Source of the DNA: Polyangiaceae bacterium
GTDB taxonomy: Bacteria; Myxococcota_A; Polyangia; Polyangiales; Polyangiaceae
DNA length: 38,865 nt
Direction of reading: 5' to 3'
Assembly: GCA_036271175.1 (NCBI GenBank)
Contig: DATBBD010000516.1
Span: 1-38,865 of the forward strand
How positions within the stretch are numbered: the first letter of the stretch is position 1; every line of letters begins with the position of its first letter. Position numbers and translations under genes: made by a program. The notes below the pieces were generated by a model. The model saw nothing but the letters and a program-made list of their open reading frames with translations, searched no databases and had not been told where the DNA came from. This document shows positions 30,702 through 35,478 of the stretch, piece after piece.

Positions 30702-32198
30702 TCATTTTTCGGGCGGCTCGTCGCTCGCCGACGTCACCGACGGATCGTCGTCGTCCGGAAGGGCGCTCGCCGCCGGCTCTTCGATGCCGTTCATCGGGGT
30801 ATGCCATTTTTTCGATTCTTCTACGGTGCACGGCCGCGGATCGTTGCGGTCGTTCTGCACGCACTCGAGCGACCAGGCGACACGCGGCGCTTCGCCGGCG
30901 CTCGCCGCTTCCGCGCGGGCCGCGGCGATGTCGCCCGAAACGGCGAACGTGGTGAGCGCGGGGAAGCCGTCGACGATGATGAGCCCGGCGATCATCACGA
31001 GCAAGAACGGGAAGGTGAACCGATAGAGGTCCATCGTCGAACGATTGAACCGGTAGCTCGCGACGAACACGTTCTGGCCGAAGGGTGGGGTGAGATTGCA
31101 CACCTCGAGGTTCAAGAGAAACATGATGCACATGTGAAAGGGCTGAATGCCGAACGCCGCCGCGAACGGCGTGACCAGCGGGACGCACACGATGATCATG
31201 CTGATGCCGTCCATCACCATGAAGTACAGGAACGCGTTCAAGACGAGGAGGAACTGCCAGCGCTGGTGAATGCCGATCGCGCTCAGCCAGTCGTACGCGC
31301 GTTCGGGAATTTGCTGGCTGATGATGTAGTTCGTGAGCGACATGGCAAACGCCATGATGAGGAGCAGCCCTCCCGCGAGCCCGATCGAGTTGCGGATGAT
31401 TCGCGGAAGGTCTTTGACGGCGATGTCTCGATAGACGAAGACCTCGACGACGAGCGCGTAGAACACCGATAGCGCGGCGACTTCGTCGATTTGCGTCAAG
31501 CCCGTCGCGAGTCCCCCGAGAATGAGCACCGGGATCCCGAGTTCCCACTTCAAATCCCAGAGCGCGAGGCCGGTCTCTCGTACGACGAACTGCTTTCTCG
31601 GGACGCGGTGCTTGATCGCGACGTAAACCGCGTACCCGCTGAGGAGGACGATGACCAACATGCCGGGTGCGATGCCGGACTTGAACGCCTTGGTGAAGTC
31701 GATGCCGGCGAAGAGCGAATAAATGAGGATCGGGAGCGACGGGGGAAGGAGCAACCCCACCGAGCCGCTGGTCGTGACGAGACCGAGCGCGAACCGCTCC
31801 GGGTATCCCGCTTTCACCATCGCCGGATAGAGCAACGCGCCGATCGCCACGATGGTTATGGCGCTCCCGCCGGTGAATGTCGTGAAAAACGCGCTCGCCA
31901 TGATGCACACGATCGCGAGCCCTCCCGGCATCCACCCGAGAAACGCCTCGGCGGCGCGGACGATGCGCGCGGGCGTCTTCGATTCGGCGAGCATGTAGCC
32001 GAGAAACGTGAAGAGCGGCACGGTCACCAGGACCGGATTGCCGGCGAAGCGCTCGTCGAGCACGTCGGGCGCGAGAAACCGGAGCACGCGCATGCTCGGG
32101 TTGTCGTGGGTGAGCCACGCGAGCTCGGTGAACCCCGCCATCGCGGCGAAGATCGGCATGCCGAGGAGAACGAGGGCGGCGACGAGGAGCGAAAGCAT
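30702..32198 (-). CDS. dctM: TRAP transporter large permease (DctM family) with an acidic C-terminal extension of about 70 aa
   Basis: A polytopic protein of about 12 TM helices, starting MLSLLVAALVLLGMPIFAAMAGF. The DctM-like segments GGSAITIVAIGALLYPAMVKAGY and PPSLPILIYS are present. It begins 7 nt downstream of the DctQ-like gene. Confidence 0.85.
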   Translation of the reverse strand: MLSLLVAALVLLGMPIFAAMAGFTELAWLTHDNPSMRVLRFLAPDVLDERFAGNPVLVTVPLFTFLGYMLAESKTPARIVRAAEAFLGWMPGGLAIVCIMASAFFTTFTGGSAITIVAIGALLYPAMVKAGYPERFALGLVTTSGSVGLLLPPSLPILIYSLFAGIDFTKAFKSGIAPGMLVIVLLSGYAVYVAIKHRVPRKQFVVRETGLALWDLKWELGIPVLILGGLATGLTQIDEVAALSVFYALVVEVFVYRDIAVKDLPRIIRNSIGLAGGLLLIMAFAMSLTNYIISQQIPERAYDWLSAIGIHQRWQFLLVLNAFLYFMVMDGISMIIVCVPLVTPFAAAFGIQPFHMCIMFLLNLEVCNLTPPFGQNVFVASYRFNRSTMDLYRFTFPFLLVMIAGLIIVDGFPALTTFAVSGDIAAARAEAASAGEAPRVAWSLECVQNDRNDPRPCTVEESKKWHTPMNGIEEPAASALPDDDDPSVTSASDEPPEK

Positions 32199-32205
32199 GG
32201 TCGTT

Positions 32206-33288: not shown

Positions 33289-33366
33289 GAATGCGTCCTT
33301 TCGACGCCGCGGGTCGGGCGTCTTCCCTCATGGAGAGCGCTCCGGCCGGATGTGAACCGAAAACGA

Positions 33367-35478
33367 CTACTCGACCGCGTCGATTTCGTGCGTGAGCCCG
33401 AGAACGTCTTCGACGAGACCCCGGGCGAGGAGGCTCCCCGTCCGTTCCTCGGCAGCTTTTTCGAAGAACGAGCGCCACTCGCGTCGTTCAGACGCCGTCG
33501 GCTCGACCGGCGCGAGGCCGCGAAAGAGCCGGACGCTGGCGGCCGTGTCGTCTTGTCGTACTCGCGACGCTCCCTCGTCTTCGGCGCGGCTCGACAGGTC
33601 GTCGACCACGGCGCGCACTTCCGGGTCCAGGCGGTCGTAAGCGCCCTTTTGCAAAAGGAGCGCCCCGCTCGTGCACGCGACCGGCATCGTCGTCACCGAA
33701 TCGAGCGAACGCGTCCAGTCGAGTCGCTCCGCGTCGCCGGCCGTGCCCACGACGACCGAAGCACCCACGCGAGGCCCGGCGTGGAGCGCGTCGGCGACGT
33801 CGAGCTCGGCGAGACTCACCGGGGTGATCCCAGGAATGGACGAATAGAACATCGGCGCGAAGGGGTCGGTGTCGAGGGCCGCCAGGCGTCGCCACGCGAG
33901 GTCAGAGGGGCGTCGCACCGGGCGTCCTCGGCTCATGAAGCGCGTGCACCCTTCGTCTTGCCACGACAAAAGGCGATACCCGACCGAAGCGAACCCGGAC
34001 TGCATCTCGTCGCGCAGGTGATCGCGGACCCACTCGACCTTGGTCCACGAATCGACGACGCCGGGGATCTGCAGCGCCGCGACGCTGGGGAGCACCGACG
34101 GCAGCGACTTTGCCGACACCAGAGCACCGTCGAGCTGCCCGGTCCGAAGCCGCGAGAGCAGCGAGCGCTCGTCGCCGCGAAACGCGCCGTTGCCGCCCCA
34201 GCGCACGCTCACGTCCAATTTTCCCGCAGTGCGGAGCGCGAGCGATCGGCGCCACGCTTCGATGAGCCGGCCTCCTGGGGTCGCCTTACCGAGCAACGTC
34301 GCGAACGTGAGCTCACGGGGGCCGTCGAGCGCCGGCCGAGGATCGGCACGTGGCGCGAGCGCCGGCGGTGACGGCGGCGCGCCCCATCGAAGCGGTGACC
34401 GAAACGCGACGAGGCCGGCGACGGCGGCGATGGCGACGCCGGCGACGAGGGACCACGACGGTCGCGTCTCGGCCGAACGGAGCCGGAGCGCCCTCAGAAA
34501 TCCGGTAGCGCAGTCGCCGCGCGCGGCGGAGCGCAACGTGCGCTCGACGGGCGCGAGATCCCGGACGCGGCGCGTCCGATCGTGGACGAGCATGTCGCGG
34601 AGCAACTCGGCGATCGACGGCGGGAATTGGCGCCGATCGAAGCGCGGCACGCCGTGCTCGGTCAGGTTGTGGAGCACTCGACCGACGTTGCCGCCGGCGA
34701 TCGGACGCTTCCCCGTCACGCATTCGTACAACACGACGCCGAGCGCCCACACGTCCGCGCGTTCGTCGATGTGCTCCTCGCCGAGGAGTTGCTCGGGGGC
34801 CATGTACTGCGGCGTTCCGAGCAGCGTCCCCGTTGCGGTGAGCGTTTCGTCGGGCGAGCCCGCGACGGCGCCGAGCGACCGTGCGATCCCGAAGTCGAGC
34901 ACACGCACGCGAGGAGACGCGTTCGACCGGTCCGACACGAGGAAGATGTTGTCCGGCTTCAGATCGCGATGCACGACGCCCGCTCGGTGCGCGGCAGCGA
35001 CGATGGCCACGACCTCGGCGAGGATGGCGCAAGCGTCGCCGAATTCGCGCCGCTCGCTCGACAGCCACTCACCCAAGGTTTCGCCGTCGAGAAAATCCAT
35101 GACCAGCACCGGCCACCGATGCTCGGCCTCGAAGACGTCGTGGACGGGTACGACGCCGGGATGGCGAATCGTCGTGACGAGTCGAGCTTCACGCTCGAAG
35201 CGTTGCTTGAGCTCCGGCGTGAGCGCGAGCCCGTCGCGGACCACCTTGAGGGCGACGCGCTTGCCCGTGAGCCGATGCGTCGCTTCCCACACCGACCCCA
35301 TCCCGCCGCGACCGACCTCGCGAACGAGTCGATATCGTCCCACGTCGCTTCCTGCGACGAAGAGCGACGTGGTGACTCCGCTCGGCGGCGGGCGTGGCGG
35401 AGCACCAGCGACCGCGGCGATGAGCGAATCCACCGACTCGAAGGCGGACGGCGTTTCGACCTCGGCGCCCGAGCTCAT
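33367..35478 (-). CDS. Ser/Thr protein kinase fused through one TM helix to an extracytoplasmic TRAP-type (DctP-like) solute-binding domain
   Basis: Kinase motifs are present: GRGGMGSVWEA, VALKVV, HRDLKPDNIFL, DFGIARS and GTPQYMAPE. TM segment SWSLVAGVAIAAVAGLVAF (aa 341-359). The C-terminal 300 aa follow the DctP pattern (ELTFATLL ... LLSRLRTGQLDGALVS ... ALQIPGVV ... GYRLLSWQDEGCTRFMSRGRPVRRPSDL ... IPGITPVSLAELDVADAL). Confidence 0.85.
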   Translation of the reverse strand: MSSGAEVETPSAFESVDSLIAAVAGAPPRPPPSGVTTSLFVAGSDVGRYRLVREVGRGGMGSVWEATHRLTGKRVALKVVRDGLALTPELKQRFEREARLVTTIRHPGVVPVHDVFEAEHRWPVLVMDFLDGETLGEWLSSERREFGDACAILAEVVAIVAAAHRAGVVHRDLKPDNIFLVSDRSNASPRVRVLDFGIARSLGAVAGSPDETLTATGTLLGTPQYMAPEQLLGEEHIDERADVWALGVVLYECVTGKRPIAGGNVGRVLHNLTEHGVPRFDRRQFPPSIAELLRDMLVHDRTRRVRDLAPVERTLRSAARGDCATGFLRALRLRSAETRPSWSLVAGVAIAAVAGLVAFRSPLRWGAPPSPPALAPRADPRPALDGPRELTFATLLGKATPGGRLIEAWRRSLALRTAGKLDVSVRWGGNGAFRGDERSLLSRLRTGQLDGALVSAKSLPSVLPSVAALQIPGVVDSWTKVEWVRDHLRDEMQSGFASVGYRLLSWQDEGCTRFMSRGRPVRRPSDLAWRRLAALDTDPFAPMFYSSIPGITPVSLAELDVADALHAGPRVGASVVVGTAGDAERLDWTRSLDSVTTMPVACTSGALLLQKGAYDRLDPEVRAVVDDLSSRAEDEGASRVRQDDTAASVRLFRGLAPVEPTASERREWRSFFEKAAEERTGSLLARGLVEDVLGLTHEIDAVE

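Follow-up and report, generated by a model that had tools for sequence, protein, structure and literature searches.

Whom does a transporter's binding protein serve once it has become part of a signalling kinase? This question is raised by a 38,865-nucleotide stretch of DNA from a Polyangiaceae bacterium (GenBank assembly GCA_036271175.1, contig DATBBD010000516.1, positions 1 to 38,865; hereafter the window), in which the genes for the two membrane subunits of a TRAP (tripartite ATP-independent periplasmic; TC 2.A.56) transporter, DctQ (Q) and DctM (M), together QM, follow a gene whose product joins a Ser/Thr kinase to the transporter's solute-binding protein (SBP), DctP (P). The three genes belong to a four-gene minus-strand module (30702-36172), which encodes an extracytoplasmic function (ECF)-type sigma factor, the kinase::DctP fusion, a long DctQ and DctM. 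In the reading that we prefer, and to which we give about an even chance of being right, the fusion acts as a P-sensing receptor kinase that activates the sigma factor, QM is thereby induced, and QM takes up the ligand from the tethered P.

A four-gene module on the minus strand

The three open reading frames (ORFs) downstream of the sigma gene are arranged head to tail on the minus strand, each with an ATG start (Table 1). Their coordinates and the gaps of 78 nt between kinase::DctP and dctQ and of 7 nt between dctQ and dctM agree exactly with the preliminary description of this locus, which overlooked the upstream sigma gene and a conserved motif before dctQ. That description also held that the window contains no free DctP gene. 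This is borne out on two counts: Pfam searches over all plausible genes of the window found no second DctP, and the sole match of the window in a tblastn search with the free DctP of a related locus is the fused domain.

The 703-aa fusion protein consists of a Pkinase domain, one transmembrane (TM) helix and a DctP domain, in this order. The kinase motifs GRGGMG, VALK, HRDLKPDN, DFG and APE are all intact and conserved, and with these catalytic motifs, a single TM helix and a C-terminal extracytoplasmic sensor domain the protein has the makeup of a receptor kinase. P itself is not a separate soluble or lipid-anchored protein here but the C-terminal part of a TM-anchored kinase. The DctP profile match covers aa 393-676 (Pfam E 1.8e-12; NCBIfam TRAP_S1, NF037995, 117.8 bits against a cut-off of 50), and the AlphaFold2 (AF2) model of the domain (predicted local distance difference test, pLDDT, 72.5) retrieves TRAP SBPs in Foldseek at E values of about 1e-16. 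An invariant ligand-site Arg lies in a G-C-x-R motif at aa 513, in the same register as the G-x-x-R of the free P proteins of this transporter family, and two Cys are conserved. The TM helix and the tether that follows it are poorly conserved in the ortholog alignment.

No close free-standing relative of the fused P was found, and its matches to any DctP in the PDB reach 39 bits or less (phmmer). A domain swap that brought in P from an unrelated DctP lineage was considered and is unlikely, because the fused P is closer to the family's free P (88-164 bits in tblastn) and its model has the best TM-score, 0.67/0.72, to TatP(T) (3u65_A). Elsewhere in the protein, the N-terminal segment of the kinase (aa 1-47, window 35337-35478) holds a peptide, D-S-x-D-S-L-I...A-x-A-P, that is conserved in all fusion orthologs and may be a docking motif. 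Among the loci, contigs and proteins compared with the window, to which L- and P-numbers refer throughout, related DctP domains also form the C-terminus of two other proteins: P0251 (565 aa), with ricin-B lectin and beta/gamma-crystallin domains, and P0309 (625 aa), with a short-chain dehydrogenase, possibly a gene-calling fusion.

M is a full-length DctM of the large 12-TM kind. Its core aligns fully with solved TRAP permeases (residues 9-419 on PpSiaM, 7qha_B), and the M subunits in the PDB are matched with E values of 1.7e-48 (9pym), 4.5e-36 (7qe5) and 6.6e-35 (7qha_B). For Q the Pfam match is marginal (cut-off 28.3 bits) and confined to aa 149-204, NCBIfam gives nothing, and a Foldseek search with the AF2 model (pLDDT 85) returned no global PDB match, only matches to a SiaQ-like core; the local match to SiaQ (7qha_A) has a probability of 0.77 and a root-mean-square deviation of 2.5 Å over 72 columns. 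Gene position and family context suggest that the protein has the role of Q. By the positive-inside rule its six predicted TM helices, against four in canonical DctQ, place the N-terminus inside. A periplasmic insert lies between the last two helices, and its motifs WGFFDH and PGxGEPRGEL are invariant throughout the family. Together with the tethered P these subunits may carry out SBP-dependent, ion-gradient-driven uptake.

M ends in a tail with 17 Asp/Glu and two Cys in the window, which is inferred to be periplasmic from the known DctM topology (PMC5812351). Family-wide the tail carries the motif EPPREAW-x2-ECVQEDRNNPLPC, in which the two Cys are invariant in all family classes. Tails measure 56-84 aa and lack acidic repeats in the kinase-linked loci; they measure 107-176 aa (73 aa in the divergent L057) in loci linked to the lipoprotein TatT and in loci without an adjacent P. 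Most tails of the latter two kinds (for example L012:9053-10693, L035 and L050) show repeated acidic DDLLKEM-like motifs or Asp/Glu runs after C-x10-C; as a speculation, such repeats may bind the tetratricopeptide repeat (TPR)-like TatT. The preliminary description had read the Q insert and the M tail as consistent with extra protein-protein contacts. This is not supported, since both are present in about 45 related loci, which mostly encode a secreted DctP and a TatT lipoprotein: insert and tail are traits of the whole family and not adaptations to the kinase.

The sigma gene lies directly upstream of kinase::DctP and, among the fetched loci, its homologs are confined to kinase-linked ones, where they are 56-90% identical and adjoin the kinase in every locus with upstream sequence; the L001 ortholog scores 57.3 bits with TIGR02937 (cut-off 42.9). 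In five of six lineages no ORF intervenes between the sigma and kinase genes, which are 60-77 nt apart. The genes upstream of sigma are not conserved between loci and no anti-sigma gene adjoins. TAnnnT boxes recur at the matching position before the sigma and kinase genes of orthologous loci; a scan for sigma-70 promoters and terminators performed no better than on shuffled sequence.

The sigma2.2 site reads AATE, AANE, AAAE or AAAD in the orthologs, or E-x-A-A in an alternative register, the register being ambiguous in the comparison with RpoE; in either register at most one of the Asp positions is acidic and QE is lost, so that the acidic DAED/DxxD motif is degenerate. ECF groups linked to Ser/Thr kinases and devoid of anti-sigma genes are on record (PMC7826278). 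In one of these, ECF43, the acidic DAED of sigma2.2 is lost and a Thr in its place is phosphorylated, within STTA of EcfP and QATE of EcfK (PMC8999054; PMC13147305); functional phosphosites also occur in the EcfK linker (PMC13147305). By this analogy, the sigma/kinase pair of the module is suggested to work in a manner resembling an ECF43-type pair, the candidate groups for the sigma factor being ECF43, 59-62, 217, 267 and 283. The phospho-acceptor Thr within the motif, present in 88% of ECF43, is not conserved among the sigma factors here, and a phospho-Thr switch of the EcfP/EcfK type was rejected as a conserved feature, the Thr not being kept in the orthologs. Invariant Ser/Thr residues are found elsewhere: S59 and T62, and T122, T124 and T130 in the sigma2-sigma4 linker.

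In the kinase-linked loci except L064, the coding strand bears a bipartite element, TCACAT-N12-CTCTC, at a distance of 37-48 nt upstream of the dctQ start codon. The spacers between kinase and Q range from 68 to 338 nt and cannot be aligned apart from this element, which has an invariant A as the ninth base of its own spacer. Each of these loci, L062 and L063 included, has a single exact copy, and none of 53 other related loci has one; within the window it is the sole match even with one mismatch allowed. No copy lies upstream of the sigma gene, which gives no evidence of autoregulation, and Rfam has no family at the site. The element is probably the target promoter of the sigma factor. In L006 the kinase-to-Q spacer (L006:10992-11329) also contains, upstream of the motif, a GC-rich palindromic element of which about 100 nt are duplicated in tandem.

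Table 1. Features of the module, with window coordinates, strand and the evidence for each
Feature	Position	Strand	Evidence or remark
ECF-type sigma factor gene, 210 aa, GTG start	35540..36172	-	Sigma70_r2 25.1 bits (cut-off 24)
Sigma-to-kinase intergenic region, 61 nt	35479..35539	-	-10-like TACGAT and ribosome-binding site AAAGGAG read from sequence; putative
Kinase::DctP fusion gene	33367..35478	-	
Hanks-type Ser/Thr kinase domain, aa 49-305, cytoplasmic	34564..35334	-	Pkinase E 4.9e-44
One TM helix (aa 339-363) followed by a Pro/Ala-rich tether (aa 364-388)	34315..34464	-	hydropathy
Periplasmic DctP-family binding domain, aa 389-703, fused to kinase	33370..34314	-	profile and structure matches
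Bipartite element TCACAT-N12-CTCTC, candidate sigma-dependent promoter	33333..33355	-	conserved; 45 nt (44 intervening bases) before dctQ start codon
Long DctQ-like small membrane subunit, 360 aa, 6 predicted TM helices	32206..33288	-	Pfam DctQ 29.6 bits
DctQ periplasmic insert, aa 204-318, about 115 aa	32335..32679	-	helical hairpin and small alpha/beta knob (model)
DctM large permease, 498 aa	30702..32198	-	TIGR00786 291 bits (cut-off 268)
DctM C-terminal tail, aa 416-498, 83 aa	30705..30953	-	motif EAPRVAW-x2-ECVQNDRNDPRPC (Cys446, Cys457)

Recurrence, selection and origin

The combination of kinase and DctP is represented by eight protein clusters in a collection of 5.8 billion sequences, all from Polyangiaceae-like metagenome bins. 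Sigma, kinase::P, Q and M occur in that order in the window, L001/L037, L004/L005, L006, L007 and L008/L062/L063, that is, the module recurs in about six independent Polyangiaceae lineages, and because of this recurrence the arrangement is not due to chance. In L064 it is rearranged (kinase::P forward, sigma reverse, Q forward) with the parts still together, and the P0004 contig has sigma and kinase::DctP before the contig ends. Compared with the window, the sigma factors of the kinase-linked loci are 56-69% identical, the fusion proteins 47-58%, the Q subunits 46-58% and the M subunits 70-80%.

The ratio of nonsynonymous to synonymous substitution rates (dN/dS), computed between the window and L008, which are 92% identical in DNA, is 0.22 for sigma, 0.06 for the kinase domain, 0.07 for the P domain, 0.23 for Q (0.145 in its insert) and 0.025 for the M core. 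No module gene has an internal stop codon; none is degenerate and all are under purifying selection, which disposes of decay of the QM genes, a finding that the preliminary description had said would tell against its proposal. The TM helix and tether are fast-evolving (dN/dS 0.90), and the tether, to judge from this pattern, behaves as a mere linker. One could still suppose that the genes adjoin fortuitously or are decaying, the kinase fusion and QM being functionally unlinked, and L003, with its frameshifted fusion and with sigma, Q and M absent nearby, would fit such a view. We find it barely credible, and indeed already contradicted, given synteny that recurs at 46-80% protein identity, dN/dS values well under 1 in genes free of internal stops, and a conserved motif specific to these loci.

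Homologues of the long DctQ make up more than 221 clusters, and 54 of its loci lie in species-representative genomes, almost all of Polyangiaceae or Polyangium. The commonest layout in the family runs from a TatT lipoprotein (PF16811, E 1e-36 to 1e-45) through a secreted DctP, which has a signal peptide and a length of about 327 aa, to Q and M, with TatT present in 42 related loci. By these relationships the permeases of the module belong to the TatT-associated TRAP family, of the TPAT type (TRAP transporters associated with a TPR protein), which is widespread in Polyangiaceae. TatT was found neither in the window nor in any kinase-linked locus (tblastn with three TatT queries), and there is no free P in the kinase-linked loci either. 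In neighbour-joining trees of M and of Q the kinase-linked loci form one clade nested among TatT-linked ones, the sister group in both trees being the TatT-P-Q-M loci L009-L013/L022. Several genomes hold all kinds of locus side by side: CAZDNG01 has the kinase-linked L008, TatT-linked L012 and P-less L028; DASZVB01 has L037, L022 and L021, respectively; and CAYUAW01 has L016, L009 and L014. The simplest history would be one in which a TPAT operon was duplicated and, in one copy, TatT and the free P were replaced by sigma and kinase::P.

The P-less loci constitute a third group, in which Q and M lack an adjacent P. A subclade of such long-Q/M pairs, in L015, L018, L019, L021 and L028, has no DctP or TatT within 8 kb, and in L028 a PAS-HisKA-HATPase-REC hybrid histidine kinase (5375-7336) lies directly upstream of Q. 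In L048-L054 and L060, from Polyangium species, Q and M come with a downstream TatT on the opposite strand and no adjacent DctP match; those with upstream sequence have a large opposite-strand Ser/Thr kinase there, which in L050 and L053 is 757 aa long with the kinase domain as its only Pfam match. A convergent MATE gene and a 927-aa kinase recur downstream of TatT-linked loci, which we treated as synteny.

Proposed sensing and uptake by the tethered binding protein

The data above establish which genes the module contains, the domain architecture and folds of their products, their conservation under purifying selection, their origin in the replacement of TatT and free P, and the specificity of the motif; on this footing we propose the following course of events. 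A ligand would close the tethered P domain; the TatT-type TRAP ancestry makes it likely that this ligand is a carboxylate bearing a hydrophobic portion, a fatty acid for instance. The TatT proteins of Treponema pallidum and of the myxobacterium Enhygromyxa salina bind long-chain fatty acids (PMC11713862). The kinase would then be switched on, and as neither the TM helix nor the tether is conserved, clustering or dimerisation is a likelier means than a conformational relay. It would phosphorylate the sigma factor encoded beside it, whose sigma2.2 acidic patch is degenerate and for which there is no anti-sigma partner; ECF sigma factors with loss of DAED that are activated by adjacent receptor Ser/Thr kinases provide the precedents (PMC13147305; PMC8999054; PMC7826278). 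The sigma holoenzyme would fire the TCACAT-N12-CTCTC element before dctQ-dctM, and the QM so produced would import the ligand as the same tethered P passes it on, much as TatP(T), a membrane-anchored lipoprotein, has been proposed to hand ligand to TatQM (PMC5812351).

Several observations weigh against this reading. Three fusion loci are without QM downstream, namely the P0003 contig, L003 and the divergent P0248; in the P0003 contig, whose upstream context is like that of L004, a convergent histidine kinase gene lies 4 nt past the stop codon of the fusion. In all three module genomes that could be checked there is a sister TatT-P-Q-M locus, the free P of which could serve these QM. Moreover, between the fused P and the free P of the sister clade identity is down to 28%, where about 65% would be expected at the given M and Q divergence (M 76% and Q 58% identical, no more diverged than within each class), and within the kinase clade P likewise changes faster in relation to M, with 44-56% identity where free P proteins keep about 65% at equal M identity. 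Between the kinase-linked and TatT-linked classes Q has no fixed substitution and M has three conservative ones; as this is all the class-specific change in Q and M despite the jump in P, QM gives no indication of co-adaptation to its new P. The remaining points concern regulation: the window sigma factor scores 41.8 bits, 1 bit under the TIGR02937 cut-off of 42.9, a Thr at the EcfP/EcfK-type position is found only in the window and L008, with N or A in the other orthologs, and L064 has just a loose variant of the motif.

Much of this could be read to mean that the fused P is a sensor only, which no longer delivers substrate, and that QM is served by the free TatP, with TatT, of the paralogous locus. 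The steep fall of P in comparison with Q and M, the near-absence of class-specific substitutions in the permeases, the presence of both locus types in the same genomes and the persistence of sigma and kinase::P without QM in the P0003 contig would all follow naturally. We nevertheless regard such a division of labour as unlikely, if a serious contender, since Q and M have stayed beside the fusion in about six lineages, one of them rearranged, TatT has been lost, and the M tails are without the acidic repeats of most TatT-linked and P-less (class C) tails. Further, recognition of QM by P is reported to be system-specific (PMC5812351), and a second P-less QM would be redundant with that of the paralog.

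The tethered P, then, is the obvious partner of QM because these loci contain no free P or TatT, and it probably also feeds them; the persistence of synteny even in the rearranged L064 and the M tails that are shortened and free of acidic repeats point the same way. The reading of the preliminary description, by which QM would have to use the kinase-anchored SBP, is thus partly supported. The same description had named a stand-alone dctP, adjacent or elsewhere and co-regulated with these genes, as evidence that would overturn it: such genes do occur elsewhere, each with its own TatT-Q-M, and their presence is silent on co-regulation.

A further alternative, put forward in the preliminary description, is a trigger transporter or co-sensor, in which docking of the tethered P on QM, or the occupancy of QM, gates the kinase, so that phosphorylation reports flux and not ligand concentration. 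The covalent union of SBP and kinase with permease genes kept alongside is in keeping with it, as are the unconserved TM helix and tether, which favour activation by proximity or a partner over a conformational relay, and the principle of transporter co-sensing is established elsewhere by DctA/DcuS and BceAB/BceS. On the other hand, the supposed extra contact surfaces are family-wide and some fusions occur without QM, while the dedicated motif before dctQ, together with the upstream sigma factor, suggests that QM is a regulated output of signalling more than a co-sensor; we therefore consider this mode of action improbable. A true transceptor, for which we would likewise allow only a small likelihood, would have P cycle between ligand capture and docking on QM, with docking gating trans-autophosphorylation of the kinase and flux being written into the ECF sigma factor.

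Genomic surroundings and known counterparts

Downstream of dctM (window 28548-30634) lie genes for a SurA-like peptidyl-prolyl isomerase (PPIase; 29741-30634) and a HupE/UreJ_2 membrane protein (28548-29744), which overlap by 4 nt. They were rejected as members of the module, being collinear only in near-identical relatives (confirmed for L063, where the sequence is long enough); their position is taken by MutS2 in L001 and by a radical-SAM gene in L006. Farther away, the window encodes a 1550-aa Tc-toxin/Rhs-type protein (5319-9971; SpvB, FG-GAP, TcdB middle/N and RHS repeats), beyond which lie large ORFs without a Pfam match (10089-11798 and 14811-18506), and, in a minus-strand cluster at 22019-24660, a catalase-like protein, a cytochrome b561 and an OmpA-family protein that bears thrombospondin type 3 repeats. 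A glycoside hydrolase family 6 (GH6) cellulase gene (3053-4759) and another Ser/Thr kinase gene, truncated at the edge of the window (2-1417), are both compatible with a cellulolytic Polyangiaceae genome.

Among characterised transporters the module is closest to the TPAT systems (TatT/TatP(T)/TatQM of Treponema pallidum, where the type was first described, PMC5812351; TatT of Enhygromyxa salina): its Q and M fall inside a clade otherwise made up of TatT-DctP-Q-M operons, its fused P is structurally closest to TatP(T), and TatP(T), being a lipoprotein, is likewise tethered to the membrane (PMC5812351). Unlike TPAT, the module has no TatT, a TM helix joins its P to a Ser/Thr kinase where P would otherwise be free or lipid-anchored, and it adds an ECF sigma gene and a private cis-element. 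Q and M are also encoded by separate genes, and the two additional TM helices of Q together with the 115-aa periplasmic insert may be a further difference.

As to signalling, the ECF43 pairs EcfP-PknT of Vibrio parahaemolyticus and EcfK-PknS of Xanthomonas citri likewise have a sigma gene adjoining that of a Hanks kinase, which spans the membrane once and has an extracytoplasmic domain; they too lack an anti-sigma gene, and their sigma2.2 DAED/DxxD patch is degenerate. They differ in that the sensor domain here is a transporter binding protein, the ECF43 phospho-acceptor Thr is not conserved, and the presumed target is the transporter operon in cis. In GlnH-GlnX-PknG of mycobacteria and corynebacteria, the only characterised SBP-stimulated Ser/Thr kinase according to a review (PMC8050422), an SBP also controls a Ser/Thr kinase; there, however, a free SBP_bac_3 protein, GlnH, acts on the soluble kinase PknG by way of GlnX, a membrane protein, with no fusion, no TRAP permease and no sigma factor.

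The SBP fold in general serves as an extracytoplasmic sensor of membrane receptors, and where two-component systems control SBP-dependent secondary transporters, such as BctC-BctE/BctD with BctCBA, the transporter's own SBP is, as proposed here, the signal input that induces the transporter genes (PMC9602780). In that system a free SBP docks on a histidine kinase, whereas here SBP and Ser/Thr kinase are joined covalently, with a sigma factor as the output. Venus-flytrap or SBP-fold domains are also present in histidine kinases of the BvgS/EvgS type; these use other SBP families and are not known to retain a cognate permease alongside, whereas here DctP is combined with retained QM and no free P.

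Open-literature searches found no kinase::DctP fusion and no TRAP permease without a free P beside one. SBP-fold sensors, kinase-activated ECF sigma factors and TPAT are each known singly; what is new is their combination, in which a transporter's own P is captured by a kinase. The module is limited to a small clade of uncultured soil Polyangiaceae, and the steps that lead beyond its architecture are inferred ones. Where SBPs couple uptake to signalling, the characterised Ser/Thr kinase case, GlnH/GlnX/PknG, is indirect. Here that coupling is written into gene structure: a TRAP P is fused to a receptor kinase, a sigma factor is paired with it, and the permeases lie behind a private element. 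Were the transceptor true, the module would rank as the first trigger transporter built on TRAP components, and its SBP as the first of any transporter to form part of a receptor Ser/Thr kinase. As a compact four-gene system with a predicted promoter, the module offers a testable natural case of one P for both sensing and uptake, and it shows how signalling can capture a transporter component.

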